Source of the DNA: Candidatus Nomurabacteria bacterium
Lineage (GTDB): Bacteria > Patescibacteriota > Minisyncoccia > Phycocordibacterales > UBA9973
DNA: 39,289 bases
Assembly (NCBI GenBank): GCA_023267315.1
Contig: JAHFNN010000007.1
Location: forward strand, 1-39,289
Direction: 5' to 3'
Below the pieces are notes generated by a model that was not told the origin of the DNA, made no database searches, and was given only the letters and a program-made list of their open reading frames with translations. The first letter of the stretch is position 1. The number at the start of each line of letters is the position of its first letter. Position numbers and translations under genes: made by a program. Of this stretch, positions 20,687 to 39,289 are shown piece by piece.

Positions 20687-21094
20687 ATGGCAACTTTAAA
20701 ACCAAAAACAACAAAAGAAAGTGGAGCTGCAAAAACTGTTAAGCCGAAAGCAAAAGCAGTCAAAGTATCTGTAGGCAAAGAAGATGGAAAGGTATTACTC
20801 CGAATCCGTGTTCGAGCATACGAGAACAAGATACTTGATGCATCAGTCAAGCAGATTATGGATACCGCACTTCGATATGATGCCAATGTATTGGGACCAG
20901 TTCCAATACCAACAGAAATCAAGAAGTACACCGTCAATCGTTCTCCATTCATCTACAAGAATACCCGCGAACAGTTTGAAATCCGCACACACAAGAGATT
21001 AATCGATATTGTGAATCCGTCTCCAAAGACGATTGAAGCACTCACAAACCTCTCATTGCCTTCAGGTGTTGAGATTGATGTGAAGATGTTGTAG
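20687..21094 (+). CDS. rpsJ: 30S ribosomal protein S10 with a Lys-rich N-terminal extension
   Basis: The core [14 protein letters not shown]...GPVPIPT...[12 protein letters not shown] matches S10. ATG 20687 is preferred to the GTG at 20663. About 35 extra N-terminal residues ([26 protein letters not shown]...). Confidence 0.9.
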
Positions 21095-23825: not shown

Positions 23826-26800
23826 ATGCGAAATAAAAATTCAGTAGTTGTTGTAGTTATTTTAGTACTTGTACTTGGTGTTGTTTTTTATTTGCTAAAC
23901 AAAAAAACAGTTCAACCAGAAGATACCACGCCTAAGACGAACGTTGCCGAAAAAACTGGCGGACGTGTATCTGAGCAAGTTCGTGTATTGAAAGATCAGG
24001 GTATTGTTTTTAAACCAGTCGACCTACTTACCCCGAGTACGAAAGTCTTTAAAAAAATGGACTCGATCTCTTATAACGCGTTCACTCCTAAAGAGGCTAT
24101 CGTAAAGGACTTACTAAAAAACAAAGATCAATACATTGCTATCCAAATTCCACTTATGCATTCGACAAATACTGCGAGTGCTGCAAGTGCGGATGATATC
24201 GCGACACTGAACCTCTATCGTGTAGATAGTGACCCTACTAATATTATGACTAGTAGTGGTAAAAAAATTGTTGATGAGACGCTTTCGTACCGCGGGGATG
24301 TAGATGGATCTACTACTGACTCACTTGCGAGTGTAACTGTTACACCATCGGGTGAAATGTATGGATTAATTTCTGATGGTACCAACACTTATAATATTCA
24401 ACCAATAGATAGGCATGATCTTAGTACAGGGGAGACTGTGACTACACCAACAATAGTTGTTTTTAATGTATTAGATGCTGGACCAAACCCTTTGCAACGT
24501 AACGACAAGCATCTTGATGTTCCAGGCGTTGAAACACAAGAACATCCAAGTTTTGATTATTTTAATCTTCCTGTTGCTCATGCTGCTGTCACAAGTACAA
24601 GTAGGGTTGTGCAATGGTACTGGGAAACTGACTACGATCTTTTTGTAGATAAAGGTAGTGCTGCAAATGTTAATACGTATATCCAGGGTGTTTTCAATCA
24701 AGTAAAGACGTTGTATGCAAATGATGGTATCCCAATCAACCTTAAGACTTTGTATATATGGACAACTCAAGATCCGTATACTGGAACAACAACGGATGCT
24801 TATTTAAATCAATTTGGCTCATATCGTACGTCGTTTGATGGTAATCTTGCGACTCTTATCGGGTATCATGGAAGCGGTGGTATTGCGTATCTTGGTACAC
24901 TTGGTTTTTCAACTACTCAATATCGAATGTCGTATTGTGGAATTAGTTCTAGTTATAGTGGTGTTCCTTCGTATTCATGGACGGTTGAGTGTATCGCACA
25001 CGAAGAAGGGCATTTACTTGGTCCAAATCACACACATGATTGTGTGTGGAATGGAAATGCAACAAAGATAGATGAATGTGGAGATGTCGCAGGATATAAG
25101 TCAGGCACTTGCCTTCCGGATCCAGTACCACAGTTGCCTGTAGGGGGAGGAACTATTATGAGTTATTGTGATCTTACAAGTGCAGGTATCAATTTCACAA
25201 AAGGATTTGGACCACAGCCTGCGCAGCTTATGGTAAATGTGATTGAAAATTGTCATAGTGCCGATCCTAATCTTTGTCCTACGGTGACAAGTACTGATAC
25301 CACTCCACCAGTTGTTTCCAACGTAACTGTTTCAAATATTACTTCAGCGACAGCAACTATTCATTGGACGACCGATGACGCATCTGATAGTTGGGTGATG
25401 TACTACAGTGATCCGAATGTCATTACAGGTATTCCTGGAAATACTAATACTACTGATCATATTGCTAACATTTCATCACTTCTACCATCTACAACTTATT
25501 ATTATTCTGTTAAATCTACAAATAGCGCTAACCTCACCAGTACCCCAACGCCCTTTGTGATGTTTAAAACAACAACTCCTGATTCAACCCCTCCCTCAGC
25601 TCCAAAAAATCTTTCTGCTACTAATACGACCGCTTCAACCACTACGCTGTCTTGGGGTGCTTCCAGTGATGGTACGGGCTCAGGGGTTGCAGGATATTTT
25701 ATCTATGAAAATGGATCAACAAATCCTATCAACTCTACCGCAATCACGGCGACAAGCTATGTAGTTTCAGGTTTAAGCTACTCCACTACATATACATTTC
25801 AGGTGTTAGCAAAAGACTTATCTGGTAACCCTTCAGCTTTGAGTAACCAGATATCTGTGACAACACTACCACCAGCAGTCCCATTCATTGTCTCTGGTCC
25901 AACGGTTTCATCCATAACAGCAACAGCAGCAACGATTACCTGGGATACAGATGTTGTTGCTGATACGCAAGTATTTTTCAGTACAACTGCTGGAGGTCCA
26001 TATACAACAAAAACTGATCCAGCTCTTGTTACACATCATTCAGTTTCGATTAGTGGACTTTCATCGAACACCAAATATTACTTCTTGGCAAAATCAGTGA
26101 ATGTATCAGGTACTGCAACGTCTGCTGAATTGAACTTCACTACGTTGGATACTCCTGATACCACTGCTCCAACTGTATCGATTACTGCTCCAACAGGAAG
26201 TTCATATCAAAAAGGAGCAGTTGTTGTAACTGCAACCTCGGCGGATAATGTTGGAGGGAAGGGGGTGCGAGATGTACAGTTCTTTGTTGACTCAACCACG
26301 AGTACAGCTATCGGTGTTGATGCAACTCTCCCATATTCTGTAACCATCGATACTACAAAATACACCAATGCTTCTCATAAACTCTATGCAATTGCCTGCG
26401 ACAACAATTTACCAACACCAAACTGTCGAACATCTGCTGCTGTTTCGTTCTATGTAGATAATCTAGTCCCTGTAACGGCAGTGACTGCTCCGACTTCAAA
26501 TCAGACAATCACCGGTACAACCTTCACACTTAAAGCTTCTGCGACTGATACTGGATCCGCTGTTTCTAAAGTTGATTTCTATGCTGATGGAAATCTTTTG
26601 GGTACTGATACAACCAGTGCGTATACATTCGCGTGGAATATTACCACTGTTACTGGAACCCACCGTATTACCTCGGTCGCAACTGACAAGGCTGGTAACA
26701 CTACAACATCATCTCCGGTTAGCGTAATCGTTAATCCTGCGGCAACAAACCAGCCACCACAAGTGAATGCTGGATCTGATCAAACTATCTATCTACCAAC

Positions 26801-27581
26801 ATTGAGTACCACACTTAATGGATTTGCGACGGATGATAATTTTGGAGGATCAACACTTACGACGAGTTGGACAAAAGTATCTGGACCTGGAACCGTGGCG
26901 TTTGGTACGCCAAATGTAGTTACTACGACCGCCATGTTCTCTACTTCGGGGAGTTACACACTTCAGCTTTATGCAACGGATGGGACATTGGCTGCGAGTG
27001 ATACTATTGTTATTAATATTACACCTAAACCAGCAGGATTCTTTGATGATTTTAATCGATCAGACAGTTCTGTGGTTGGAAATGGGTGGCAGACCATAGC
27101 CGGTTCTTTTGGAATAAAAAATAATAAGCTGACTTCTACATCTGGGGTGCAATCTAGAATTATTCAGCCAGCATCCTTTGTTGATCAAACAGTCTCAGCG
27201 ACATTCCAAAGATATAATTCTACTGGAGCAAGTAAGTTTTGCTTACTTCTTAGATACAAGGATGCGAATAATTATATGGATGCCTGTCAGACGTTTGGTG
27301 GATCTCAACAAATATATATGGCAAAAGTTGCCAATGGTTCAACCACCTTCAATTACGTAAAAGCAACGAATGGCTCCAATCTAAATACGGGAAACTACTA
27401 TACTCCGTTTACCATAAAGGCAAGCGCTATTGGTTCGACTTATTCAATGACTCTTACAAATCAGGACGGTACATATAACCTAGTACCATTTACCGACACC
27501 ACCTTAACTCAAGGAATGTCGGGAATCATGATCGGAGCATCTGCTGGTCTTGATACGATTGACGAATTCAATATTCAATAA
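23826..27581 (+). CDS. Giant membrane-anchored metzincin-type zinc metalloprotease (reprolysin-like) with Fn3, Ig-like, PKD-like and C-terminal lectin/LamG-like domains
   Basis: HEEGHLLGPNH (an HExxHxxGxxH motif) at 24999..25031, with a Met-turn GTIMSYC (Met codon 25158..25160). N-terminal anchor VVVVVILVLVLGVVFYLL. Fn3 repeats carry DSTPPSAPKNL...GSGVAGY. The C-terminal ~270 aa are collinear with the C-terminus of 6373..12390. Confidence 0.85.
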   Translation: MRNKNSVVVVVILVLVLGVVFYLLNKKTVQPEDTTPKTNVAEKTGGRVSEQVRVLKDQGIVFKPVDLLTPSTKVFKKMDSISYNAFTPKEAIVKDLLKNKDQYIAIQIPLMHSTNTASAASADDIATLNLYRVDSDPTNIMTSSGKKIVDETLSYRGDVDGSTTDSLASVTVTPSGEMYGLISDGTNTYNIQPIDRHDLSTGETVTTPTIVVFNVLDAGPNPLQRNDKHLDVPGVETQEHPSFDYFNLPVAHAAVTSTSRVVQWYWETDYDLFVDKGSAANVNTYIQGVFNQVKTLYANDGIPINLKTLYIWTTQDPYTGTTTDAYLNQFGSYRTSFDGNLATLIGYHGSGGIAYLGTLGFSTTQYRMSYCGISSSYSGVPSYSWTVECIAHEEGHLLGPNHTHDCVWNGNATKIDECGDVAGYKSGTCLPDPVPQLPVGGGTIMSYCDLTSAGINFTKGFGPQPAQLMVNVIENCHSADPNLCPTVTSTDTTPPVVSNVTVSNITSATATIHWTTDDASDSWVMYYSDPNVITGIPGNTNTTDHIANISSLLPSTTYYYSVKSTNSANLTSTPTPFVMFKTTTPDSTPPSAPKNLSATNTTASTTTLSWGASSDGTGSGVAGYFIYENGSTNPINSTAITATSYVVSGLSYSTTYTFQVLAKDLSGNPSALSNQISVTTLPPAVPFIVSGPTVSSITATAATITWDTDVVADTQVFFSTTAGGPYTTKTDPALVTHHSVSISGLSSNTKYYFLAKSVNVSGTATSAELNFTTLDTPDTTAPTVSITAPTGSSYQKGAVVVTATSADNVGGKGVRDVQFFVDSTTSTAIGVDATLPYSVTIDTTKYTNASHKLYAIACDNNLPTPNCRTSAAVSFYVDNLVPVTAVTAPTSNQTITGTTFTLKASATDTGSAVSKVDFYADGNLLGTDTTSAYTFAWNITTVTGTHRITSVATDKAGNTTTSSPVSVIVNPAATNQPPQVNAGSDQTIYLPTLSTTLNGFATDDNFGGSTLTTSWTKVSGPGTVAFGTPNVVTTTAMFSTSGSYTLQLYATDGTLAASDTIVINITPKPAGFFDDFNRSDSSVVGNGWQTIAGSFGIKNNKLTSTSGVQSRIIQPASFVDQTVSATFQRYNSTGASKFCLLLRYKDANNYMDACQTFGGSQQIYMAKVANGSTTFNYVKATNGSNLNTGNYYTPFTIKASAIGSTYSMTLTNQDGTYNLVPFTDTTLTQGMSGIMIGASAGLDTIDEFNIQ

Positions 27582-27597
27582 AAATAATGATGTAACA

Positions 27598-27625
27598 TAA
27601 AGACCCGCCTAGTGGCGGGTTTTTA
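27598..27625 (+). terminator. Intrinsic terminator
   Basis: aaagacccgcc-tagt-ggcgggttttt. Confidence 0.85.
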
Positions 27626-27640
27626 TGTTATAATTTTCGT

Positions 27641-28039
27641 GTGAATATGGAGGAAAAAAATGAGAAAAAATTTACAGGACTCGTATCTCATGCAAAGAGC
27701 ATGAGCAATGCCGTCCGTGGTATTCGGATTTTTATATTTAGTACCCCGAACGCATGGGTAGAGCTTGCGTTTGGTATCCTTGTTTTTACCCTCGGTATGT
27801 ATTTCTCTATATCTGCAACACAATGGCTGCTTCTTTTTGTAGTTGTCTTTCTGGTGCTTGCGGCGGAAGCATTTAATACTGCTATTGAAGTACATATGGA
27901 TCTTACATCACCACAGTATCATCCATTTGCTCGTGACACGAAAGATATTGCTGCTGGGGCGGTATTGATACTCTCGATCTTAGCTCTTATTGTTGCGTTT
28001 GGTATCTTTTTTCCAAAAATTTTCCCGTATTGTTTCTAG
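27641..28039 (+). CDS. dgkA: Diacylglycerol/undecaprenol kinase family protein (DgkA-like)
   Basis: 132 aa with three TM helices and the conserved EAFNTAIE and ...KDIAAGAVL motifs. The start could instead be ATG 27647. Confidence 0.75.
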   Translation: MNMEEKNEKKFTGLVSHAKSMSNAVRGIRIFIFSTPNAWVELAFGILVFTLGMYFSISATQWLLLFVVVFLVLAAEAFNTAIEVHMDLTSPQYHPFARDTKDIAAGAVLILSILALIVAFGIFFPKIFPYCF

Positions 28040-28049
28040 AAGTAATCTT

Positions 28050-28079
28050 AAAAAAGCCCTGCAATCGCAGGGTTTTTTA
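28050..28079 (+). terminator. Intrinsic terminator
   Basis: aaaaaagccctgc-aat-cgcagggtttttt. Confidence 0.85.
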
Positions 28080-28081
28080 GT

Positions 28082-28110
28082 TTGACTTCAATCTCTTTGA
28101 ATGGTATTCT
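28082..28110 (+). promoter_or_regulatory. Candidate promoter for pyrF
   Basis: TTGACT (28082..28087), a 17-nt spacer ending in TGg, then TATTCT (28105..28110). Confidence 0.4.
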
Positions 28111-28158
28111 GACCCCGAATTAGAAATCTATTGTTAAACAAGTTAAAAACTAAAAATT

Positions 28159-28944
28159 ATGAATCTCAGTCATCGCCTATCAGAGGCATTAAAGAAAGTT
28201 ATTTTTGCACTTGATATAAGTGATCTTGAAAAGGCAAAAGAACTCCTTATGAAAATTGGCCCGCATGTTGGAGGAATCAAAATTGGGCTTGAAACTCAAA
28301 CAGAATTTGGCGGACCGGTAATAATCAATTTGGTTGCTGGAGCGAATGGTAAAATATTTTATGATGGTAAATGGAACGATATTATGAAAACCATTGAAAA
28401 TGCTACTAAAGCACTTGCAACAAAAAAGAGCATAACCATGTTTAATGTGCATGCAACAAGTGGGGATGCTGCGATTCAGGCTGCAGTTCAAAATTGTGGA
28501 GATGCTATCGTTCTCGTGGTGACAGTTCTTACTTCAATTTCACCGGAGGAGTGTTATGAAATATTTCGGGATACTCCGGAAAATGTGGTATTGAAATTTG
28601 CGCGCAAAGCAAAGAGGAACGGCGCTCATGGTGTCATTTGTTCCGCGAAGGAATTACCGTTACTTATGGCAAATCCTGACGTGAAGGACTTGATTAAAGT
28701 AACGCCTGGCATTCAGCCCGAATGGATGAATTCGAATGATCAAAAAAGAGTAATGTCACCTGGTGAAGCAATTATGGCCGGGGCTGATTATGTTGTTATT
28801 GGTAGAGCTATATCCTCTCCTGATCCTAAGGCGGGTTGGGTGGATGCTCCTGCCAAAGGTGACTCACTTGCAGCTCTTAAGTTGATAGCTGAAGAAATTG
28901 CTCAGGCGATGGATGAATTGAAAGCTGTAGAGGGAAAAGTATAG
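28159..28944 (+). CDS. pyrF: Orotidine 5-prime-phosphate decarboxylase
   Basis: 261 aa. Contains ALDISDLEKA, GGIKIGLE, DGKWNDIMKT (corresponding to K.hDI..T), VTVLTS, and TPGIQ...GADYVVIGRAI. Confidence 0.85.
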   Translation: MNLSHRLSEALKKVIFALDISDLEKAKELLMKIGPHVGGIKIGLETQTEFGGPVIINLVAGANGKIFYDGKWNDIMKTIENATKALATKKSITMFNVHATSGDAAIQAAVQNCGDAIVLVVTVLTSISPEECYEIFRDTPENVVLKFARKAKRNGAHGVICSAKELPLLMANPDVKDLIKVTPGIQPEWMNSNDQKRVMSPGEAIMAGADYVVIGRAISSPDPKAGWVDAPAKGDSLAALKLIAEEIAQAMDELKAVEGKV

Positions 28945-28964
28945 TTTTGGTTTTGAATACAAAA

Positions 28965-29004
28965 TAAAAAAGGATAACCCCGATGTTTCGGTGTTATCCT
29001 TTTC
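28965..29004. terminator. Bidirectional terminator between pyrF and pyrE
   Basis: aaaaaaggataac-cccgatgtttcgg-tgttatcctttt, between convergent genes. Confidence 0.7.
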
Positions 29005-29029
29005 TTTTTGCCTTAAATTACAAATTAAA

Positions 29030-29710
29030 TTATTTTCCCCAACTCGCCGGGTTTTTTCTCCACGCCTGCAACGTTTCAAGATCGCTATTGCTAACGAATC
29101 CTCCTTGAATCGCTACTTCTATCAGCGTGTTGTAGTCGCATAATGAATAGTGTGGGCATCGTGCTTTGTCGAATTGCTCTTCAGCCACATCAAATCCATA
29201 AGTGAAAATTGAAATTAATCCTTTGACGTTCACGCCTCTCTCACGTAATGCCGCTACCGCTTTTAGTGAGCTGCCCCCGGTTGAGATTAAATCTTCAACC
29301 ACTACTGCTGATTGGCTGTCATTAATTTCTCCCTCGATCATGTTTTCTTTACCGTGGTCTTTTGGAGCTGAGCGAATATATGGCGCCGGAAGTTTTAGTG
29401 ACTCGGCCATAAGGGTTCCCCATGGTATTCCTGCTGTTGCAACTGATGCGACAACATCAAAAGGGGAGTAGAATTTTACAGCCCGGCGTGTCATTGATTG
29501 CCAAACAAATTCCCTGATTGTGGGGCGTGTGAGTGCCATCCTGTTATCACAATAAATGGGTGATTTCCATCCGGATGCCCAGGTGAATGGTTCATTCGGC
29601 TGTAATTTTATCGCCTTAATTTTTAAGAGAAATTCGGCTACTTGTTGCGCGATTTCTTTGTCAGTAAGAACCTCAGATTTGAGGTCAAATGCTTGGGTAT
29701 TCATAATCAA
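29030..29710 (-). CDS. pyrE: Orotate phosphoribosyltransferase
   Basis: 226 aa. PRPP-binding loop VVVEDLISTGGSS, plus N-terminal FTWASGWKSPIYCDNR, which is typical of type-I OPRTases. Confidence 0.85.
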   Translation of the reverse strand: MIMNTQAFDLKSEVLTDKEIAQQVAEFLLKIKAIKLQPNEPFTWASGWKSPIYCDNRMALTRPTIREFVWQSMTRRAVKFYSPFDVVASVATAGIPWGTLMAESLKLPAPYIRSAPKDHGKENMIEGEINDSQSAVVVEDLISTGGSSLKAVAALRERGVNVKGLISIFTYGFDVAEEQFDKARCPHYSLCDYNTLIEVAIQGGFVSNSDLETLQAWRKNPASWGK

Positions 29711-29787
29711 TTAGAATTTAGAGTTTAAATGATTTATTTCAAATTTACCCATTTCTACCATACAAAAGGTGGTAAGGCAATCAAAAT

Positions 29788-29824
29788 AAAAAAGTGGAAT
29801 CCAGTACAACTGAATTCCACTTTT
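29788..29824 (-). terminator. Intrinsic terminator after the dihydroorotase-like gene (minus strand)
   Basis: gtggaat...attccac stem. The minus strand continues with ttttttatttt. Confidence 0.65.
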
Positions 29825-29861
29825 GTGCGTATCTTTTGATACAGTTTAATTAAATGTGCGA

Positions 29862-31223
29862 CTATCTGCTAAATACCAACTCCATTGCTGGCGATTCAAA
29901 GGATGGAAATAATGGACTCACTTCTGTCACATCATCATGGTAGACAATAGTGCCATTAACAATCGTCATCATTACTTTACCTTTAAAGCTATGCCCTTCA
30001 AGAGGGCTCCATCCGCATTTGTAATGGATGTTTTTCTTTCCCACGTTCCATTTTATGCGCGGATCATAAATAGCGATATCAGCATAGTATCCCTCCTTAA
30101 TTTCTCCACGATCTCGTATACCAAAAATGTATGCTTGGTTCCGTGAAGTTTTTTCAGCGATCTGCGGATAGGTCATGTATCCTTTTCGTTGCCACTCGCA
30201 AAGCATGTCTAAACGATGTTGTACCAAAGGAAGTCCTGATGGGCATTTAAAGTATGGAAGGGCTTTTTCTTCAACCGTATGCGGAGCATGATCCGTGTTT
30301 ATCACATCAGTGTCAACGAGTGCTTTGAGAAGTGCCTGCTGGTGTCGTGCATCTTTAATTGCCGGGTTGCATTTTATCCAGGAACCCAAACGTTCATAAT
30401 CATCAGCGTTGAACCACGGGTGGTGCACGCATAATTCCATGAATATTCGCTTCTCCATTATCGGGGTAGCAAAATCAAATAACTTAAGTTCTTCGGCAGT
30501 GCTTATATGATAGATAAGTAGATGTGTACCGAACTCTTTTGCTAATGAAAATGCAAGTGAACTACTTTTAAGACATGCTTCCATTGGCCTAATCAGCGGG
30601 TGGTCGCTCATAAGGATCTCATCTTTTTCAGCGTAGAGATTCTCGTTGAATTTGATCATTTTTTCATCTTCGCAATGAGTGATTACGAGCTTGCCCAATT
30701 TAAAGATTCCTTCCAGTACACTTCTGTTATCTACCAGCATATTGCCAGTAGAAGAACCCATGAATACTTTTATGCCAGGTATTCGGTCGCGATGCATTTC
30801 TATTGCGAGCTGCAGTTCAGGAAGATTTTCGTTGGTTGCGCCTAAATTACAAGAGTAATTAATAAGCGATGTTTGTTTTGCCAACTTTAGTCTTTCATAC
30901 AAACGAGCTATTGTTGTTACTGCAGGATTGGTGTTTGGTTGCTCAATATATGAAGTAACACCTCCTGCTGCAGCTGCGCGTGTTTCACTGAAAATTGTCG
31001 CTTTATAATCCTGAAGTTCATCACGGAAATGTACTTGGCCATCGATGAGACCAGGGAATATGAGCATCCCATAGCATTTGATAATCACTGCATCTGCCGG
31101 ATTTGCTGAAATGTTTTCGGCAATCTTTATAATGAGCTTACCTTCAATAAGAATGTCGGCTCGGAGAAATCCGAGATGGGTAACAATAGTGCCACCTTTA
31201 AGTAATGTCTGATTTTTTTTCAT
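29862..31223 (-). CDS. pyrC: Dihydroorotase-like cyclic amidohydrolase
   Basis: 453 aa. Contains PGLIDGQVHFRD (in place of the canonical D.HVH.R), GIKVFMG, ITHCED, IYHIST and NTDHAPH, consistent with the amidohydrolase superfamily dihydroorotase/allantoinase branch. Confidence 0.75.
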   Translation of the reverse strand: MKKNQTLLKGGTIVTHLGFLRADILIEGKLIIKIAENISANPADAVIIKCYGMLIFPGLIDGQVHFRDELQDYKATIFSETRAAAAGGVTSYIEQPNTNPAVTTIARLYERLKLAKQTSLINYSCNLGATNENLPELQLAIEMHRDRIPGIKVFMGSSTGNMLVDNRSVLEGIFKLGKLVITHCEDEKMIKFNENLYAEKDEILMSDHPLIRPMEACLKSSSLAFSLAKEFGTHLLIYHISTAEELKLFDFATPIMEKRIFMELCVHHPWFNADDYERLGSWIKCNPAIKDARHQQALLKALVDTDVINTDHAPHTVEEKALPYFKCPSGLPLVQHRLDMLCEWQRKGYMTYPQIAEKTSRNQAYIFGIRDRGEIKEGYYADIAIYDPRIKWNVGKKNIHYKCGWSPLEGHSFKGKVMMTIVNGTIVYHDDVTEVSPLFPSFESPAMELVFSR

Positions 31224-31391
31224 GACGGTATATGGATTTTAGTTGGTTATTTTAGTTGTGAATTTGTCTTCATACTACGTATTTTTGCTTAAAAGGCAAA
31301 TAGAAAAAGATAATTAAAAACTTTACTTTGTATAAGAATAAGCTTACTATTTCTTAGGTTTAGAACTATATAAAACTTAAAATCAACCGCT

Positions 31392-31931
31392 ATGAATATA
31401 CCTACTAGTACTCTTTTTACCCAGGAAAATTTCTGGGGCACTCATTTTAAAAAAGTTGCTCTTCTGAAAAATTTCCCTCGAATTGAGGGGGTTATACATT
31501 ATTCCGATGTGATTGGCACCGATTCTGTATATCTCAAATTCTATAATGAAACTACGAATGAGTTCCAATACAAGTATTTTCATTTAGAGGATTTTCAGAT
31601 TGTGCAAGATTGTTCGAGATTATTTTTTAAAAACCTTGATGCTTTTGCAGAAAAAATAAAAATTGGTCCGGCAAGAGTTTTTAAAGAAAAAATTGCTGAG
31701 ATTCAAATTACAGATACCCATAGAGAGCTCCTTCTTTTTGCTGAATATTTATACGTATGTGGCAGATATAAGTGGGCACAACCGCTTTTATTTAAAGATA
31801 TGGCAAAGGATTTAAGAGTCGCCAGAATGAAAGGTCTATTAAAAGATTGCAGTGAAGTACATGTCGAACTTCTGCTTCGACTTGTTGCAGCTCGTATCGG
31901 GTATGTATTAGGGAATCATCCCGGAGACTAA
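31392..31931 (+). CDS. Hypothetical cytoplasmic protein
   Basis: 179-aa ORF with no TM segment and no recognisable motif. It is followed by a terminator. Confidence 0.5.
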   Translation: MNIPTSTLFTQENFWGTHFKKVALLKNFPRIEGVIHYSDVIGTDSVYLKFYNETTNEFQYKYFHLEDFQIVQDCSRLFFKNLDAFAEKIKIGPARVFKEKIAEIQITDTHRELLLFAEYLYVCGRYKWAQPLLFKDMAKDLRVARMKGLLKDCSEVHVELLLRLVAARIGYVLGNHPGD

Positions 31932-31948
31932 GCGGTAATGATATTCAA

Positions 31949-31985
31949 GAAGCCCAATATACTAAAAAGTATGTTGGGTTTTTTA
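31949..31985 (+). terminator. Intrinsic terminator
   Basis: cccaatatact-aaaa-agtatgttggg with one G-U pair, followed by tttttta. Confidence 0.7.
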
Positions 31986-32168
31986 TTTTAACCCTAATTG
32001 GTACTATTTTTAGTAAAACTATCAAAAATGACTCAAAAGTAGTGGTATGAACCTATCTCATTGACGCGATACTCTACTTATAAATATCGTGTAGTCTATC
32101 GATATATAGGTAGAGTCTTAGCTAAGGCGCGATCCCTGTGTTTTAAAGGGGAAATAAGCGAGCAATAT

Positions 32169-32196
32169 TTGACATTATTATAGGATTTGCTAGTAT
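32169..32196 (+). promoter_or_regulatory. Strong sigma70-type promoter for the rpsS...rplE block
   Basis: TTGACA (32169..32174), a 16-nt spacer, then TGc-TAGTAT (32191..32196). The architecture and flanks match the tuf promoter (gcgagc..atttgaca.tta.t.ta...tttgctagtatg). Confidence 0.7.
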
Positions 32197-32235
32197 GAAC
32201 CCACTGGCTCTAGAGGAGCTATTTTAATTAGTCAC

Positions 32236-32583
32236 ATGACACGATCACTTAAAAAAGGACCATATGTAGACCTACGCCTTCTCAAGAAGATTGAGGGCAA
32301 AAAGCCTTTGGATACAGGGGTTATTAAGACTTGGGCTCGAGCATCACAGATCTCTCCAGAAATGGTGGGTTTCATCTTTGGTGTCCACAATGGTAAAAAC
32401 CACGTTGAAGTACTCGTTACTGAAGACATGGTAGGTCATCGATTGGGTGAATTTTCCCTTACTCGTAAGTTCGTCCGTCATGGAGGTCAAATGCAGAAGG
32501 CTATTGAAGCGAAGCAGAAAGAGTCTGAAATTGCAGCTGCTCAAGCAGCTAAGGCTTCTGTCTCTGATAAGGCTAAGAAATAA
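32236..32583 (+). CDS. rpsS: 30S ribosomal protein S19 with a C-terminal extension
   Basis: [12 protein letters not shown]...VHNGK..V.V..T..MVGH.LGEF..TR is the S19 pattern. About 20 extra C-terminal residues. Confidence 0.95.
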
Positions 32584-32601
32584 TTTTTTTATATATAAAC
32601 C

Positions 32602-33057
32602 ATGCGCGCTACACTTACAAACTACAGACAATCACCTCGAAAGGTTCGCCTCGTTGCAAACCTCATAAAAGGGAAGAGTGTTGATCAGGCTAATACAGAG
32701 CTCTCATTTTTGGCTAAGCGTGCGTCATTGCCATTCCAAAAGCTACTTCAGTCAGCTGTTGCAAACGCAAAACAGAACTCTGGTATAGATGCAGCAAATC
32801 TTTTTGTAGTCGATGCACGTGTTGATAAGGGTGTTGTTATGAAGCGCAGTATGCCTCGCGCGATGGGATCTGCTTCACGAATCAACAAGCGTTCAAGTCA
32901 CGTTACAATCGTGCTTGGAGAGCGTGGTGCGGTAGTCGCACCAAAGGCTAAAAAGGTTTCATTGAAGGTTGAAAAGACAGAAAAGGTTGCTGAGAAAAAG
33001 GTAGTAAAAGCTAAAACAGCCGTTAAAAAAGTTACCAAGAAAGAAAAAGCAAAATAA
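32602..33057 (+). CDS. rplV: 50S ribosomal protein L22 with a Lys-rich C-terminal tail
   Basis: 151 aa. Contains RQSPRKVRLVANLIKG and GVVMKRSMPRAMGSASRINKRSSHVTIVL, followed by a ~40-aa KKV-rich tail. Confidence 0.95.
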   Translation: MRATLTNYRQSPRKVRLVANLIKGKSVDQANTELSFLAKRASLPFQKLLQSAVANAKQNSGIDAANLFVVDARVDKGVVMKRSMPRAMGSASRINKRSSHVTIVLGERGAVVAPKAKKVSLKVEKTEKVAEKKVVKAKTAVKKVTKKEKAK

Positions 33058-33060
33058 TAT

Positions 33061-33732
33061 ATGTCAAAAATCGTTCACCCATATGCGCATAGATTGATTA
33101 TTCTCCGAGACTGGAAGTCTCGCTGGTTTGCGCTTGATAAAAAGTACAAGGATTACTTGAAAGGAGATGTCCTTCTTCGAGAATACCTCACGAAGAAACT
33201 TCGTGGTTTTTACGTTTCATCTATTGAAATGGAACGCAGTCCAAAATCAACCAAGATCATTATCCGTACTTCACGCCCAGGTATGATTATTGGACGTTCT
33301 GGTGAAGGTGCAGTCAAACTCAAACAAGATATCATTCGCACAATGAAGAAAATGAAAGTGAGTGTTCCAGAGGAACTCAAAGTTGATATTGTTGAAATCC
33401 CAGTACCAGAAGCTGATGCTGCAATTGTTGCATACATGGTCGCTGAAGGACTTGAAAAGCGTATGCCGTATCGTCGTGTCATGAAACAGACGATTGAAAA
33501 GGTGATGAATGCACGTGGTGTGCAGGGAGCACGTGTGGTGCTTGGTGGCCGCTTGGGTGGAGCTGAAATTTCTCGTGGGGAAGAGTTGAAGCGTGGTTCT
33601 ATTCCACTTCAGACCTTCCGTGCAGATATCGATTTCGCTCGCGAGAAGGCACACATGACATACGGAGACATCGGAATCAAGGTCTGGATTTACCGAGGAG
33701 AAGTTTTTGCTGAGAAAAAAGCAGTTAAATAA
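33061..33732 (+). CDS. rpsC: 30S ribosomal protein S3
   Basis: 223 aa. KH-domain sequence IIIRTSRPGMIIGRSGEG and a C-terminal domain LGGAEISR.E....GSIPLQTFRADIDF. Confidence 0.96.
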   Translation: MSKIVHPYAHRLIILRDWKSRWFALDKKYKDYLKGDVLLREYLTKKLRGFYVSSIEMERSPKSTKIIIRTSRPGMIIGRSGEGAVKLKQDIIRTMKKMKVSVPEELKVDIVEIPVPEADAAIVAYMVAEGLEKRMPYRRVMKQTIEKVMNARGVQGARVVLGGRLGGAEISRGEELKRGSIPLQTFRADIDFAREKAHMTYGDIGIKVWIYRGEVFAEKKAVK

Positions 33733-33737
33733 TATTT

Positions 33738-34157
33738 ATGTTGGTACCAAAAAAAGTAAAACATCGAAAATGGCACTCGGATCGTAAGAATCCAAAGACA
33801 ACAACACCTGACACACGAGGTACGACTCTTTCATTTGGTTCATTTGGATTGAAAGCTATCACTGGTACACGTGTCCGTTCAAACCAAATCGAGTCTGCTC
33901 GTAAAGCAATGGCGCGTAGTGTTTCAAAGACTGGCCGTGTCTGGATTCGTATTTTCCCTGATCGACCATATACCTCAAAGCCACCAGAAGTGGGAATGGG
34001 AAAAGGAAAGGGTGATCCACAAGGATACTGTTTTGAAGTACGCCCAGGACGAATCATTTTTGAAGTTGATGGAGTTGAAGAAGCTGTTGCGCGTGAAGCA
34101 CTTCGAAAGGCAGGTACCAAATTGCCAATCAAGACTCGCGTAGTAAGCCGAGCATAA
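33738..34157 (+). CDS. rplP: 50S ribosomal protein L16
   Basis: MLVPKKVKHRKWH..., RIFPD.P.T.KP.EVGMGKGKG.P and the operon position. Confidence 0.96.
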   Translation: MLVPKKVKHRKWHSDRKNPKTTTPDTRGTTLSFGSFGLKAITGTRVRSNQIESARKAMARSVSKTGRVWIRIFPDRPYTSKPPEVGMGKGKGDPQGYCFEVRPGRIIFEVDGVEEAVAREALRKAGTKLPIKTRVVSRA

Positions 34158-34166
34158 TACATTTTT

Positions 34167-34355
34167 ATGGAAGACATTAAAAAGATGAATGACAACGAAA
34201 TAAAGAAGTCGATTACTGAGAAACAAGAAAAGTTGCGATCATTTCGATTTGGTATTTCAGGCGGAAAGACAAAGAACGTCAAAGAAGGACGAACTCTTCG
34301 CCGAGAAATCGCGCAGCTATTTACTGAACTTACTTCACGTGCATTACAAGCGTAA
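34167..34355 (+). CDS. rpmC: 50S ribosomal protein L29
   Basis: 62 aa, helical and Lys/Glu-rich (EKLRSFRF....GKTKNV...R.LRREIAQL), lying between rplP and rpsQ. Confidence 0.88.
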   Translation: MEDIKKMNDNEIKKSITEKQEKLRSFRFGISGGKTKNVKEGRTLRREIAQLFTELTSRALQA

Positions 34356-34364
34356 TATTTATAT

Positions 34365-34616
34365 ATGAAAGAAAAAGTTGAAATAACAAAAAATAAGAAA
34401 GCGCTTCGCGGTACGGTTGTATCTGACAAGATGGATAAGACTGTTGTCGTTTCAGTAACTCGCTTCGTAAAGCACCCTAAGTACAAGAAGCACATCAAAA
34501 AGAGTAAGCGATACAAGGCGCATGATGAGAATAATACCTATAAAGTAGGTGACATTGTGACGATTCAAGAAACACGACCAATGTCGAAAGATAAGCATTT
34601 TAAAGTATTAGCATAA
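34365..34616 (+). CDS. rpsQ: 30S ribosomal protein S17
   Basis: 83 aa. Contains [18 protein letters not shown]...HP.Y.K......K...HDE.N....GD.V.I.E.RP.SK. Confidence 0.95.
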
Positions 34617-34620
34617 TTAT

Positions 34621-34992
34621 ATGATTCAAGACGGAACAGTAGTAAAAATTACAGATAACGCCGGCGGTAAGATCGGCAAGGTATTCAAAGTGCTCGGTGG
34701 TTCACGCCGACGCTATGCTTCTATTGGCGACCGCGTCATCATTTCTATCAAGATCGCAGAACCTCGTAAGGCAGTAAAGAAAAAGGATGTACATCAAGCT
34801 GTGGTTGTTCGCGTACGAAATGCGTTCCGCCGAAAAGATGGATCATATATTCGTTTTGATGATAACGCTGTCGTGATTTTAGAAAAAGATAAACAAGAAC
34901 CAAAGGCAGGACGCGTCTTCGGTCCAATTCCTCGTGAATTGGGTGAGAAGGGCTATCAGAAGATTATTTCTTTGGCACCTGAGGTTATTTAA
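34621..34992 (+). CDS. rplN: 50S ribosomal protein L14
   Basis: MIQDGTVVKITDNAGGK...V.V.....R.DGS.IRFD.NA.V....GPI.REL is the L14 signature. Confidence 0.96.
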   Translation: MIQDGTVVKITDNAGGKIGKVFKVLGGSRRRYASIGDRVIISIKIAEPRKAVKKKDVHQAVVVRVRNAFRRKDGSYIRFDDNAVVILEKDKQEPKAGRVFGPIPRELGEKGYQKIISLAPEVI

Positions 34993-34996
34993 TACT

Positions 34997-35302
34997 ATGA
35001 ATATCAAGAAAGGAGACAACGTAATAGTTATCGCTGGTAAAGACAAAGGCAAGAAGGCTAAGGTATTGGGAGTATTCGCAAGTCAGAACCGCGTATTGGT
35101 TGAAGGCATCAACATGAAGAAGAAACACCAAAAGCCTCGCCGCACCAATGAGAAAGGTCAAACAATCGAAGTCGCAACACCACTCCACATTTCAAACGTT
35201 ATGCTTATTGATTCAAAATCAGGAAAGCAGACACGTGTTGGTTCAAAGATGGCAGGTGGTAAGAAGATTCGAGTTAGTAAGAAGTCAGGAAATGAAATTT
35301 AA
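34997..35302 (+). CDS. rplX: 50S ribosomal protein L24
   Basis: MNIKKGDNVIVIAGKDKGKKAKV (KOW motif). The start at ATG 34997 is internal to the ORF-track start at 34934, which would overlap rplN. Confidence 0.93.
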   Translation: MNIKKGDNVIVIAGKDKGKKAKVLGVFASQNRVLVEGINMKKKHQKPRRTNEKGQTIEVATPLHISNVMLIDSKSGKQTRVGSKMAGGKKIRVSKKSGNEI

Positions 35303-35307
35303 ATCAT

Positions 35308-35856
35308 ATGAGTAAACATCTTACAGTAAAAGAAAAAGAGCAGAAGTCCTACGAATCAATGAAGGGCGTATTCGGCTACAAGAATAAAATGGCTGCTCCA
35401 CGTCTCGTGAAGATTGTGGTTGCATCTGGAACAGGATCAGGACTCAAGCGTGATAAGAATCGAAATGATTTGATCATTGATCGTTTGGGTAAGATCACTG
35501 GTCAGCGTTCAGCTGTGCGTGCTGCAAAGAAATCTATCGCATCATTCAAAATTCGTCAGGGAGATCCTGTCGGCGTGATGGTTACACTTCGTGGTGCACG
35601 TATGTATGGATTCTTGGACAAGCTCATCAATGTATCAATTCCTCGAACAAAAGACTTCCGTGGCGTTGATCGAAAGATAGTAGATAATATCGGTAATCTT
35701 ACGATGAGTATTAAGGAGCACACTATTTTCCCAGAAACGGGGGATGAAGAATTGAAAGACGTGTTCGGAATGGCAGTGACGGTGGTGACGACAGCAAAGA
35801 CTAAACCTGAAGCAATCGCATTTTTTGAGAATCTCGGATTTCCATTTAAGAAATAA
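35308..35856 (+). CDS. rplE: 50S ribosomal protein L5
   Basis: 182 aa. Contains PRLVKIVV..G.G, FKIRQGDPVGV.VTLRG..MY.FLDKLI....PR..DFRG, and the operon position. Confidence 0.96.
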   Translation: MSKHLTVKEKEQKSYESMKGVFGYKNKMAAPRLVKIVVASGTGSGLKRDKNRNDLIIDRLGKITGQRSAVRAAKKSIASFKIRQGDPVGVMVTLRGARMYGFLDKLINVSIPRTKDFRGVDRKIVDNIGNLTMSIKEHTIFPETGDEELKDVFGMAVTVVTTAKTKPEAIAFFENLGFPFKK

Positions 35857-35864
35857 GAAAAAAT

Positions 35865-35900
35865 AAAAAACACCCTGATATACAGGGTGTTTTTTATTTT
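35865..35900 (+). terminator. Intrinsic terminator immediately after rplE
   Basis: aaaaaacaccctg-atata-cagggtgtttttt followed by atttt. Confidence 0.85.
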
Positions 35901-35988
35901 AGTCCTTTTTACTGTTGTGATAATAGCTAAAACTGCTACTATTGATATATAACATTAATAACTCATTGTTGTTACCTTGATTGAATAT

Positions 35989-38900
35989 ATGAAAAAACAC
36001 ATAGTCTCTACTTCAATATTATTTGTGGTGCTTGTTATTCTTATTGTGTTTTTTCATGGTTCGTTCGGGTCATTATGGAAAAATTTGATGGGGGCTGCTC
36101 GTAATGCTTTTTTGAACTCGACAACACCTTCTACTGGGGTAGTTGCGACCTCTCCAAATCAATTTAAAGGTGTATCTGTCTACAGTAATGAATTTTTTAT
36201 AAAATTGAAAAAAAATACAAGTCCAACGTCGACTGATTTTAAAAATATAAATAAAAAATATGGGGTTACGTCATTCACGCAAGCTGTTAAACCACTCGCT
36301 ACTTCTAATTCATCTGCCGATGTATTTTTATGGTATAAGGTGACACTACCATACACAAAAGAAGCACTCACGCTTGATGGATCCAGGAACGATACAAATA
36401 TGACCACACAGGATAAGTTGGGAAAACTGTTCCGTGCCATTGAAGATTATAAAAAATTGAGTGGATTATCAAAGATAGAACCATCTCTGGTGTACTATCA
36501 ATTTAATAGTCCGAATGATTCATACTTTACTTCTTCTGGTAGTTGGGGACAACCGACTGATGATTTATGGAATCTTAAAAAGATAAATATGCCACTTGCG
36601 TGGGATCAAAGTACTGGAGGCAATGTGTTAGTTGCTGATATTGATACTGGACTTGATGGTGCCAATCCTGATATTTCGGGCAATGTGGTTCCTGGATTTG
36701 ATTTTTGTACGAACCTTGCAACGGGAGTGACTACTGATAACGATAAAGTTGGTCATGGTACACACACCGCAGGTATTATTGGTGCAACTGGAAATAATAC
36801 GTTGGGTATTGTTGGGATCAACTGGAAAGTTAAAATTATGCCCCTTGCTATCTTTGATAGCAATAATCACTACTGTTCTGGGGCAGGACCTACGGCTGTG
36901 ATATATGCAGCTGATAATGGCGCAAGGGTTACTAATAATAGTTGGGGAGCAATAAGTTATGATCCGCTTCTTGATGATGCATTTAGGTATGCCTATGATA
37001 AAGGTGTCATTTCTGTTGCTGCTGCGGGAAACAATAATATAGATGCACTTGCGGTATCGCCCGCTTCATTCCCATGGGTTATAACAGTTTCAGCAACTGA
37101 TTATCAGGATCAAAGAGCTTCTTTCTCTAACTGGGGAGCAAAAATTGATGTGGCGGCACCAGGAGTGGACATACTTTCACTACGTGCTTCTATGACTGAT
37201 TTTTATAATGATGGTGGGTCGCACTTTGTGCCACCATACGATTTTTCTACAAATTATATGCGCATGAGTGGTACTTCTATGGCGGCACCTCATGTTACTG
37301 GCCTCGCAGCATTACTCCTTGCAAAGTACCCAACTCTTTCAGTCGAAGGAGTTCGTCAAATAATTCGTACGAACACTCTTGATCTACTTCCGGCTGGCAA
37401 AGATGATTCTTTTGGATATGGACGAATAGATGCTGGAAGTACAATGGTGAATGCCATTACGTTACCACTTGAACCTGTTATTACGAGTCCTAAAAATGAT
37501 AGTGCGGTTGTTTCCGGGAGTGTCCCTATCTTAGGAGGTGTTGTTGGTCCTAATTTTAAATCGTACTCATTAGATTATGGAATAGGGCACTCGCCATCAT
37601 CTTGGAATAATATAGTTACCAGTACAAATCAGATCACGAGTGGTACATTGGGAACTTTTTCTGCAAATACGGTTCCTGATGGTTCGTATACGATACGTCT
37701 CACGGCAACCAACACTTCAGGTAAGACATTTGAATTTGCTGTCTATAATGTCATCGTTAATAATTTTACGATTTCGATCGTTAATCCGGTAGATTATGTT
37801 TCAAAAACTACCGCAATGCCTATTTCAGGAACGGTTAATGCAATCGCTGGTGTCACGCTTCAGTCTTACATCGTTGAATACGCTCCGGGGATCAACCCGA
37901 ATTCTGGGTGGATAACAATCGGTACAAATACAAATACCGTTGTTGATAGAACGCTTGCTTCATGGAATACCTCAGCACTTGCGTTAGGTGCGTATACTAT
38001 TCGGGTTACCGCCACGACTTCAACTGGTGCGGGAGCTACTCAACAATTTCATGTGAATGTTGACCCCGAAATGGTTCCTGGTTGGCCAAAACTTCTTTCA
38101 TATTCATGTAACGTCTGGTATCAGTGTTCTATGATGCCTGCATTTGGTGATCTCTTGGGGAATAAACAGAGAGAATTGGTGACTGCAAGTAAAAATATTC
38201 TTCATGCATATAAAAAAGATGGTAGTGAATTACCTGGCTTTCCCGTTACCCTTTCTTCAGGAGAATATTTCAACCGTGCGATAACATTAGATGATCTTGA
38301 TGGTGATGGTAAAAAAGAAATTATTGTTCCTGTTTGTCCACCAGCATATCCTGACGGTACTGCCGGAGATTGTCATATCAATATTTTCACTTCTTCTGGA
38401 GCAAGTTATCCTGGATGGACTAAACCAAAAGTTCAATTTACGTACTATATTTATCAAGGAGAAGCACTTGGTCCTGCAATCTATGATCTTGATGGTGACG
38501 GCAATAAAGAGATAGTTTTTTATGATCATTATGGTTCTTTGCATGCATATAAACTCAATGGCACAGAAATTTCTGGTTTCCCTGTGGCAACCGCGGCTCT
38601 GTTTGCATTGAAGACATCGCCAGGGGAGACTCCGTATGTATCAATTGCTGATATGGATCAAGATGGTAAACCAGAAATTGCAATGACGGTTTTAAATGGT
38701 GTTGGTGGACAGCTTAGAGTTGCTCTTTTAGATAATAAAGGAGCGGTTGTTCCTGGGTGGCCTGTCTCTATCCCAATAAGCCCAAATGCAAATCCTCCGG
38801 TTCCTTCTTCGGCTCCTACCTTCGCGGATCTTTTGGGTGATAAAAATCTTGAGATAGTTGTACCTATTGGTACGTATAATATGAAAGCAGGTGGTGATTA

Positions 38901-39289
38901 TCCTATCCACGCGTGGGCAAAAGATGGAAGCGAGGTTTCTGGATGGCCGAAGTCGTATCACAGTGATTATTTTGCCGGTGGAATTGCAGGAGGTGTTATC
39001 GCTCCCGTCGCGGCTGATTTAGATTATGATTTTAGAGACAATATTATCTATAACTTGAATGATCACTTCTTTATGTATTCACAATTAGGATCAGTGACGG
39101 ATTTTGCTGATCCATGGATACAAGGAAATCTGACGTCTCGACCGGTTGGTAATGTGAACGGTGATAACCATCTTGATTTTATTGATGCTGCATTGAGTCC
39201 TTGGTTTGGAGGCAAAGGAACAACTGGATTGGGGATTGTTGATGACACTGGAAAGGTTACGTGGCAACGAAGTTTTGATTGCGGAGATC
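35989..39289 (+). CDS. Third giant membrane-anchored subtilisin-like protease (S8) with tandem Ig-like domains and FG-GAP/VCBS-like repeats. It is 3-prime partial (no stop codon in the window) and absent from the ORF track.
   Basis: My own translation from ATG 35989 stays open for 1100 codons to the window end. N-terminal anchor ILFVVLVILIVFF. Triad motifs: VADIDTGLD (Asp 36643..36645), HGTHTAGIIGA (His 36754..36756) and SGTSMAAPHVTG (Ser 37276..37278). Repeats: LDDLDGDGKKEI, YDLDGDGNKEIV, ADMDQDGKPEIA. Confidence 0.85.
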   Translation, partial: MKKHIVSTSILFVVLVILIVFFHGSFGSLWKNLMGAARNAFLNSTTPSTGVVATSPNQFKGVSVYSNEFFIKLKKNTSPTSTDFKNINKKYGVTSFTQAVKPLATSNSSADVFLWYKVTLPYTKEALTLDGSRNDTNMTTQDKLGKLFRAIEDYKKLSGLSKIEPSLVYYQFNSPNDSYFTSSGSWGQPTDDLWNLKKINMPLAWDQSTGGNVLVADIDTGLDGANPDISGNVVPGFDFCTNLATGVTTDNDKVGHGTHTAGIIGATGNNTLGIVGINWKVKIMPLAIFDSNNHYCSGAGPTAVIYAADNGARVTNNSWGAISYDPLLDDAFRYAYDKGVISVAAAGNNNIDALAVSPASFPWVITVSATDYQDQRASFSNWGAKIDVAAPGVDILSLRASMTDFYNDGGSHFVPPYDFSTNYMRMSGTSMAAPHVTGLAALLLAKYPTLSVEGVRQIIRTNTLDLLPAGKDDSFGYGRIDAGSTMVNAITLPLEPVITSPKNDSAVVSGSVPILGGVVGPNFKSYSLDYGIGHSPSSWNNIVTSTNQITSGTLGTFSANTVPDGSYTIRLTATNTSGKTFEFAVYNVIVNNFTISIVNPVDYVSKTTAMPISGTVNAIAGVTLQSYIVEYAPGINPNSGWITIGTNTNTVVDRTLASWNTSALALGAYTIRVTATTSTGAGATQQFHVNVDPEMVPGWPKLLSYSCNVWYQCSMMPAFGDLLGNKQRELVTASKNILHAYKKDGSELPGFPVTLSSGEYFNRAITLDDLDGDGKKEIIVPVCPPAYPDGTAGDCHINIFTSSGASYPGWTKPKVQFTYYIYQGEALGPAIYDLDGDGNKEIVFYDHYGSLHAYKLNGTEISGFPVATAALFALKTSPGETPYVSIADMDQDGKPEIAMTVLNGVGGQLRVALLDNKGAVVPGWPVSIPISPNANPPVPSSAPTFADLLGDKNLEIVVPIGTYNMKAGGDYPIHAWAKDGSEVSGWPKSYHSDYFAGGIAGGVIAPVAADLDYDFRDNIIYNLNDHFFMYSQLGSVTDFADPWIQGNLTSRPVGNVNGDNHLDFIDAALSPWFGGKGTTGLGIVDDTGKVTWQRSFDCGD

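Follow-up and report, generated by a model that had tools for sequence, protein, structure and literature searches.

The 39,289-nucleotide stretch of DNA analysed here (contig JAHFNN010000007.1 of a Candidatus Nomurabacteria bacterium, positions 1 to 39,289; hereafter the window) ends within a large gene on the + strand, downstream of the ribosomal protein (r-protein) gene rplE. We interpret this gene as encoding a surface or secreted pre-pro-subtilase, and as a separate transcription unit in a slot between two r-protein operons, a reading to which we assign a probability of about 0.85. From the ATG at 35989 the + strand frame runs for 1100 codons without a stop to the window end (39289), as a preliminary description of the sequence had claimed and as translation bears out; the chance of such an open frame at the local base composition is ~6e-32, and the portion in the window is the 5′ 85% of the gene. 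The same description reported the gene missing from the accompanying track of open reading frames (ORFs). It is indeed absent from that list, which for 36.1-39.3 kb holds short internal ORFs only, but this is because the lister drops ORFs that run off the sequence end, and the absence is a listing artefact and no biological feature. A whole-protein AlphaFold model built on a 44-sequence family alignment reached a mean predicted local distance difference test score (pLDDT) of 82.4 and a predicted template modelling score (pTM) of 0.72. The predicted gene and its domains, with protein positions in amino acids (aa), are:

35989..39289, + strand: partial pre-pro-subtilase gene with immunoglobulin (Ig)-like and FG-GAP propeller domains, 1100 of ~1290 codons, open frame
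36001..36054, + strand: N-terminal hydrophobic signal anchor or signal peptide, aa 5-22, IVSTSILFVVLVILIVFF, after MKKH
36172..36492, + strand: predicted subtilisin-type N-terminal propeptide, aa 62-168, beta-alpha-beta fold
36556..37452, + strand: S8A catalytic domain, aa 190-488, with D219, H256, N348 and S430
37471..37758, + strand: Ig-like beta-sandwich domain 1, aa 495-590, model strands at pLDDT >90
37765..38061, + strand: Ig-like beta-sandwich domain 2, aa 593-691, from the AlphaFold model
38077..39288, + strand: FG-GAP beta-propeller cut by the window end, ~7 of an expected 8 blades

The catalytic domain carries the assignment. A search of Pfam for Peptidase_S8, suggested in the preliminary description, gave a match of PF00082 above its gathering score (E=6.8e-51, 173.7 bits against a cutoff of 21.8) that spans aa 211-478 and profile positions 2-288 of 288. 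The complete S8 triad proposed at D 36643, H 36754 and S 37276 proved exact in its coordinates, which correspond to D219 in a DTG motif, H256 in HGTH and S430 in GTSMAAP; these three residues and the oxyanion-hole residue N348 are invariant in the 44-sequence alignment. In Foldseek comparisons the modelled domain reaches template modelling scores (TM-scores, normalised to target length) of 0.89-0.92 to savinase, thermitase and subtilisin BPN'. By profile, by the order of the triad motifs together with the oxyanion asparagine, and by the modelled alpha/beta fold, the predicted protein is a member of the S8 subtilases.

One feature sets the domain apart from its family. An acidic loop of 18 residues (EIPxNGIDDDxNGYVDDYYGW), probably Ca2+-binding, is carried by 39 of the 44 aligned members, and its deletion is common to the window protein and its closest homologue, P0001 (1290 aa, 52% identical), alone. 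At 36680-36760 (aa 232-256) the loop is replaced by a short segment with a conserved cysteine (DFCTN), likewise in P0001, and a second conserved cysteine lies ~55 residues downstream of DFCTN, within HYCSG in the window protein and NYCPG in P0001; the two might form a compensating disulfide.

Two narrower assignments of the catalytic domain were rejected. PADLOC models gave a generic 'subtilase' match on the S8 domain (E=6.3e-30) and a marginal IetS match (E=4.7e-5), and we set aside an anti-phage defence subtilase system on the grounds that the similarity is generic only, partner genes are absent and the protein has a signal anchor. The best NCBIfam match of the domain is to mycosin (TIGR03921, the S8 protease of type VII secretion), at 199.7 bits and thus below the cutoff of 278.75; there are no type VII secretion genes near the window protease, and the domain architecture differs, mycosins not being known to have a propeller and having a C-terminal membrane anchor.

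The regions that flank the catalytic domain fit a secreted proenzyme. At the N-terminus the AlphaFold model has a helix at aa 8-43 with a hydrophobic core at aa 5-22, and this segment is conserved in P0001, all consistent with the signal anchor that had been proposed. The propeptide previously raised as a possibility is borne out by the modelled beta-alpha-beta fold of aa 62-168 (pLDDT mostly 82-96) and by Foldseek alignments to fervidolysin, pro-subtilisin E and pro-Tk-subtilisin that reach across the prodomain. C-terminal to the catalytic domain, the two tandem Ig-like domains of ~95 aa first placed at 37480..38065 agree with modelled sandwiches at aa 495-590 and 593-691. The first, counterpart of a fervidolysin sandwich domain, has weak Big_13, PKD and He_PIG matches in Pfam, and the second a weak K319L-like PKD match (E=0.0033); the weak Ig-type matches (Big_13, PKD, K319L-like) fall within aa 540-690.

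From aa 700 the model consists of all-beta repeats. FG-GAP_3 (PF13517) matches three stretches (E=7.6e-16, 58.9 bits, cutoff 26.9) and FG-GAP (PF01839) two (E=8.8e-6, 25.9 bits, cutoff 22.1), so the FG-GAP half of the FG-GAP/VCBS propeller that had been predicted stands, but the VCBS half does not, with no VCBS family match in a Pfam scan of the protein at E up to 1. The alternation of DxDGDG motifs with GxPGWP, SGFP or PGFP turns was likewise recovered: DxDxDG-type motifs are canonical at aa 769, 833 and 888 and degenerate at 1010, and they alternate with six GWP, GFP or GWT turns at aa 698, 750, 809, 863, 923 and 985, spaced ~55-60 aa apart. Modelled alone, the C-terminal 406 residues form regular beta blades (pLDDT 84.6, pTM 0.89). 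Both the family consensus and P0001 have eight DxDxDG repeats, and the window sequence stops inside the propeller. Since P0001 aligns to window aa 1-1100 only through its own aa 1-1096, ~190 residues are missing beyond the window, which by analogy with P0001 would complete the propeller with its final blade and add a Big_7 domain at the C-terminus.

A homologue search at E<=1e-10 returned 3,106 proteins with the same S8, Ig/Big_7 and FG-GAP architecture, typically 1,250-1,450 aa long, named 'S8 family serine peptidase' at source and hosted by Patescibacteria, DPANN archaea, Methanosarcinales, Elusimicrobia and others; named examples besides P0001 are P0017 from Patescibacteria, P0034 from Methanolobus sediminis and P0033 from Nanoarchaeota. 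Homology within this uncharacterised family is collinear and full-length, at 31-54% identity in the 44-sequence alignment and with BLASTP query coverage mostly 85-100%, and domain order is alike, with catalytic and propeller residues invariant. The gene thus adds one member to a large family for which annotation already exists. Within the family we regard the window protein and P0001 as orthologues because the loop deletion is a shared derived character. A scan of the JGI metagenome collection with the protease gave no close orthologue (best matches 27-41% identity), and we found no literature specific to the protease family or to breaks in the Patescibacteria r-protein cluster.

Among characterised proteins the nearest relative is fervidolysin, the keratinase of Fervidobacterium pennivorans (PDB 1R6V, MEROPS S8A), which is both the best PDB sequence match (E=4.8e-50) and the top Foldseek match (E=1.2e-26 over 711 columns that take in the propeptide, the catalytic domain and both sandwich domains), followed in the Foldseek ranking by unprocessed pro-subtilisin E and pro-Tk-subtilisin. 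In both proteins an N-terminal propeptide is followed by a subtilisin catalytic domain and then by a pair of beta-sandwich domains. They differ in that fervidolysin, with 671 residues in the solved chain, has no propeller, whereas the window protein continues into an FG-GAP propeller of ~500 aa and, judging from P0001, would end in a Big_7 domain; the structural alignment shows only ~20% identity, and the host of fervidolysin is a thermophile, that of the window protein a mesophile-like Patescibacteria bacterium. For the propeller, Foldseek finds Vibrio cholerae Bap1 (6MLT), CRTAC1 (9ETN), integrin alphaIIb (3FCU) and the fungal lectin PVL (4UP4) at E values of 2e-9 to 2e-5, TM-scores of 0.41-0.54 (normalised to query length) and 10-16% identity. 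In these four proteins the propeller serves outside the cell to bind a ligand or glycan, and the window propeller has DxDxDG loops of the Ca2+ type as in integrin-alpha-type propellers; unlike them, it is fused to a protease and cut by the window end.

The chromosomal setting of the gene is that of an insert between r-protein blocks. The features immediately upstream are:

32169..32196, + strand: promoter of the rpsS-to-rplE unit, TTGACA, 14 nt, TGCTAGTAT, extended -10
32236..35856, + strand: rpsS, rplV, rpsC, rplP, rpmC, rpsQ, rplN, rplX and rplE, all with NCBIfam equivalog matches above cutoff
35860..35900, bidirectional: intrinsic terminator ending the rpsS-to-rplE unit, a hairpin of 18 pairs flanked by A and T runs
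35915..35942, + strand: promoter-like site for the protease gene, TTGTGA, 14 nt, TGCTACTAT, a regular-expression match in the 132-nt intergenic region

The gene directly upstream of the protease is rplE (35308-35856; NCBIfam 194 bits against a cutoff of 186), and the terminator behind it has a folding free energy (dG) of -22.5 kcal/mol against -3.5 +/- 1.9 for shuffles, in keeping with the earlier claim that the protease gene follows a terminator downstream of rplE. The promoter of the rpsS unit scores 10/12 in a consensus scan, with the TG of an extended -10, and the same TTGACA-N14-TGCTAGTAT form occurs before tuf (19270-19297). The site upstream of the protease has the extended -10 form of the r-protein promoters with a weaker -35, and would serve the protease gene. 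No structured RNA or r-protein leader matched Rfam at gathering thresholds anywhere in the window.

The sequence of rplE places the organism among Paceibacteria/Nomurabacteria-type Patescibacteria (best identity ~80%), and we compared the rplE/rpsN junction across 68 loci, made up of the informative GTDB relatives and L003, a locus from a different organism in the same sample whose r-proteins are ~75% identical to those of the window. In L003 the order runs from rpsS-rplE to the 1290-aa orthologue P0001, a 157-aa anchored Big_7 protein, a terminator, TTGACA-N14-TGCTAGTAT and then rpsN (61-aa zinc type), rpsH, rplF, rplR, rpsE, rplO and secY, and the ribosomal operon therefore resumes after the insert. 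The question whether rpsN, rpsH and rplF return downstream of the protease is thus answered positively for the orthologous locus, and for the window itself by proxy only. At L003 10562-10747 the public gene call is a 60-aa minus-strand ORF and lies on the wrong strand, because the plus strand encodes the 61-aa zinc-type S14 (rpsN/rpsZ, CxxC...CxxC) directly before rpsH.

In the 68 loci rplE and rpsN are separated by 148 to 4,812 bp, with <=260 bp in 22 loci and >500 bp in ~45, and the distance from rplB to rpsS is likewise variable (123-5,580 bp in 80 relatives). A promoter of the form TTGACw-N14-TGCTAGTAT precedes rpsN by no more than 260 nt in 63 of the 68 loci, including 20 of the 22 that have no insert, and at least 37 of the 68 have a terminator after rplE. 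Because the promoter before rpsN is conserved even where nothing is inserted, we take the rplE/rpsN junction to be an ancestral operon boundary in this clade, and the protease occupies a variable intergenic slot between two r-protein operons, not an operon interior. The copy at L003 10396-10424 is near-identical to the form that heads each ribosomal block examined, and TTGACw-N14-TGCTAGTAT looks like a clade-specific signature of strong promoters. The notion that the gene sits where the spc operon normally continues holds for Escherichia coli and Bacillus but not for this clade; with a clade-wide boundary and common inserts, the placement of the protease is far less anomalous than it first seemed. 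The ribosomal context is at the same time ruled out as a trait of the protease family: among the sampled members a location in the ribosomal cluster is confined to the window protein and P0001, and four others (P0017, P0042, P0063 and P0002) have unrelated, non-ribosomal neighbourhoods.

The 83 ORFs of >=100 aa in the rplE-rpsN gaps are of mixed function and include no S8/FG-GAP protease; ten encode pilin-like proteins of the N_methyl type, and among the others are guanylate and adenylate kinases, TruB, a sigma factor, a reverse transcriptase and components of toxin-antitoxin systems. N-terminal anchors are found in 24 of 82 such cargo ORFs against 91 of 1,480 other ORFs of the same loci (odds ratio 6.3, p=6e-10), an enrichment that is suggestive only because the background is rich in r-protein genes. 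In Gammaproteobacteria and Bacilli the insertion of a few genes between transcription units is the usual first step of cluster break-up, as when bfd-bfr or ilv-leu separates str from S10, or nrdHEF interrupts rpoBC (Brandis 2021, PMC8046335). The situation here is likewise one of unrelated genes between transcription units of the str-S10-spc-alpha cluster, but the breaks described by Brandis fall between classical operons, whereas those seen here fall inside classical S10 (rplB/rpsS) and spc (rplE/rpsN), at boundaries that have a conserved clade-specific promoter and contents differing from species to species.

Such turnover gives weight to the best-surviving alternative, in which the protease gene is recently acquired cargo of the flexible genome, brought in by horizontal transfer and perhaps by homologous recombination through the conserved ribosomal flanks, a course of events that we consider less likely than not. 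Nearly every relative has slot contents of its own, a reverse transcriptase and toxin-antitoxin parts among them, no S8/FG-GAP gene lies within 10 kb of rplE in any of 80 GTDB relatives, and close homologues occur in distant phyla and in archaea. GC content at third codon positions (GC3) is 0.256-0.284 in six surface or cargo genes of the window (the three proteases, two Big_7 proteins and a 179-aa orphan; 0.278 in the protease under study) against 0.317-0.414 in every ribosomal or housekeeping gene, a difference that could equally reflect foreign origin or codon selection weaker than in highly expressed genes. Set against recent arrival is the orthologue in the same slot of L003, with the same loop deletion. 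When eight r-proteins (988 columns, 75 taxa) are placed in a neighbour-joining tree, the window, L003 and L032 form a group in 50% of bootstrap replicates, which is moderate support, and L003 belongs to the sister clade of the window in ~70%; L032 carries different cargo at the slot, suggesting later replacement. As the same slot is occupied although the r-proteins are ~75% and the proteases 52% identical, the gene would have been resident before the lineages split or transferred long ago, and the tree, the shared deletion and the shared slot favour a single old insertion, whereas the low GC3 of the surface and cargo genes points the other way or stays unexplained. A mobile genetic element or genomic island was rejected: we found no integrase or transposase, no recombinase among the neighbouring genes, no tRNA target (nor any tRNA in the window) and no flanking repeats around the complete insert of L003.

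We consider it improbable that the protease is co-transcribed or functionally coupled with the ribosomal operon, such that read-through from the rpsS promoter would tie its expression to growth rate. The gene is co-directional with the r-protein genes and separated from rplE by only 132 nt, each of the three giant proteases of the window is encoded just behind an r-protein block and co-directionally with it, and 68 of the 82 cargo ORFs of the relatives point along the r-protein genes. Yet the very stable terminator with its T-run parts rplE from the protease, the blocks and cargo genes of the window carry terminators of their own, the protease gene has its own promoter-like site, and the functions of the cargo are too mixed for a link to the ribosome. 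Membership of the protease in a co-transcribed spc operon was rejected, being contradicted by the terminator (35860-35900) and the promoter-like site (35915-35942) and, in L003, by a terminator and strong promoter that also part the insert from rpsN.

That the protein is a non-catalytic adhesin, a pseudo-protease kept only for its propeller and Ig binding domains, is highly improbable. More than half the length of the protein is given over to binding domains, and the catalytic domain has lost a loop that is near-universal in the family, but D219, H256, N348 and S430, together with the motifs around them, are intact and family-invariant, and the domain is modelled at high confidence with a TM-score of ~0.9 to active subtilisins. 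Finally, an assembly chimera fusing the r-protein operon to an unrelated protease gene, which a metagenomic source and a gene running off the contig end might suggest, is effectively refuted already, since ENA contig L001 (99.99% identical over 8,063 bp, window 30399-38461) and Logan contig L002 (100% identical over 1,240 bp, window 34909-36148, covering rplX, rplE, the terminator and the start of the protease gene) both reproduce the junction and thereby exclude a chimeric join, and another organism has the same gene order in two assemblies (L003 and L004). For extending the window, a look-up by rplE returned only L001 and L002, both shorter, which left the stop codon beyond reach.

The analysis establishes the open frame, the domain identities, the catalytic residues, the terminator, the conserved promoters and the synteny. 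For the surface or secreted pre-pro-subtilase that we favour, we infer secretion, autoprocessing, proteolytic activity, a binding role for the propeller and a physiological role as follows. The N-terminal hydrophobic segment would direct Sec export and possibly tether the protein to the membrane; the propeptide (aa 62-168) would fold and inhibit the S8 domain and then be autocleaved, on the model of fervidolysin and subtilisin E. Once mature, the enzyme would cut extracellular or host-surface proteins by means of D219, H256 and S430, with N348 forming the oxyanion hole, while the two Ig-like domains would act as spacers and the Ca2+-type FG-GAP propeller, with a C-terminal Big_7 Ig domain past the window, as a targeting module for a protein or glycan ligand. 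The organism is probably unable to make its own amino acids, and peptide scavenging, host-surface remodelling or both are the likely role; a genome study of one member of the Gracilibacteria (Patescibacteria) infers that amino acids are obtained from external peptides via many peptidases (PMC6851277). The position of the gene would then reflect clade history, the rplE/rpsN boundary with its terminator and conserved promoter being a permissive, variable slot. The protease itself is a candidate host-interaction or nutrient-scavenging factor of an uncultured ultra-small bacterium.

Several points weigh against this interpretation. With the acidic loop deleted, stability or Ca2+ dependence may differ from those of the family, and the N-terminal segment can be read as a cleaved signal peptide or a permanent anchor alike. 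The gene is truncated, its stop codon, last blade and C-terminal domain being projected from P0001; the promoter-like site has a weak -35 and is a pattern match only. Amino-acid auxotrophy is presumed for an organism of which we have 39 kb of sequence, and we found no experimental report of secretion, processing or activity for any family member in the literature.

The context is more useful than the protease: throughout the clade the r-protein cluster is modular, and its variable slots are rich in genes for surface proteins. In this clade rplB/rpsS and rplE/rpsN are real operon boundaries with variable inserts, and the assumption of an unbroken r-protein cluster, which underlies marker-gene binning, contig-chimera checks and synteny annotation, fails. 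More speculatively, and with more doubt than conviction, the Paceibacteria str-S10-spc cluster could be recast as fixed blocks (tuf-rplB, rpsS-rplE and rpsN onward) headed by near-identical TTGACw-N14-TGCTAGTAT promoters, whose junctions would be fast-turnover slots with a preference for surface or secreted genes, such as those for pilin-like and anchored Ig proteins and, in the lineage of the window, for three giant proteases. Lineages might then exchange such genes by homologous recombination through the conserved ribosomal flanks, and the protease would be one case of a general surface-diversifying mechanism in episymbionts. If the slots prove to be preferred sites of surface-gene exchange, they would offer a simple, alignable place to track the surface diversification of Patescibacteria.

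The rest of the window has a comparable layout, in the following order:

rpsL-rpsG block, then an anchored Big_7 protein and a 2010-aa S8 protease
fusA block, then an anchored Big_7 protein, purD and purN
tuf-rpsJ-rplC-rplD-rplW-rplB block, then a 1251-aa M12/reprolysin-like protein, DAGK, pyrF, PRTase, an amidohydrolase and an orphan ORF
rpsS...rplE block, then the S8/FG-GAP protease

Intrinsic terminators follow rpsG, fusA, rplB, rplE, the first Big_7 gene, the 2010-aa S8 gene and the M12-like gene, and the tuf and rpsS blocks both begin with TTGACA-N14-TGCTAGTAT. The second giant S8 protease (2010 aa, 6358-12390, between rpsG and fusA) has fn3 and purple-acid-phosphatase-N-like domains and is preceded by a 267-aa N-terminally anchored Big_7/DUF7743 protein (5425-6228), each gene with its own terminator. 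The C-terminal 440 aa of this protease are 60% identical to a partial gene upstream of DAGK and rpsS in L003, which places its orthologue there in a different slot. At the rplB/rpsS junction of the window (23826-31931) lie 8.5 kb of inserted genes: the 1251-aa M12/reprolysin-like protein, which is anchored and has fn3, Big_7 and PKD domains, DAGK (27641-28039), pyrF, PRTase and the amidohydrolase (both on the - strand) and the 179-aa orphan ORF. Small anchored proteins with a single Big_7 domain recur beside giant proteases, before the 2010-aa S8 gene, after fusA (14932-15744) and after the L003 orthologue (9880-10353); they may be protease partners or anchors, and by analogy a further gene of this kind is expected just past the window end.

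Smaller features lie among these blocks. A stable long hairpin with a poly-T/poly-A clamp (19170-19254, dG -37.4 kcal/mol) sits ahead of the tuf promoter, in a non-coding stretch of 470 nt. An unannotated ORF of 74 aa (15866-16090), located between purD and the second Big_7 gene, encodes a Cys/His-rich small membrane protein (MENQQMNVCASGNCGCTHHH...GCGCGEKKN) that might be a metal-binding peptide. Relative to their Pfam cores, the r-proteins S10 (20663-21094) and L23 (22468-22809) have ~46 and ~28 extra N-terminal residues, and L22 (32602-33057) has ~45 extra C-terminal residues.

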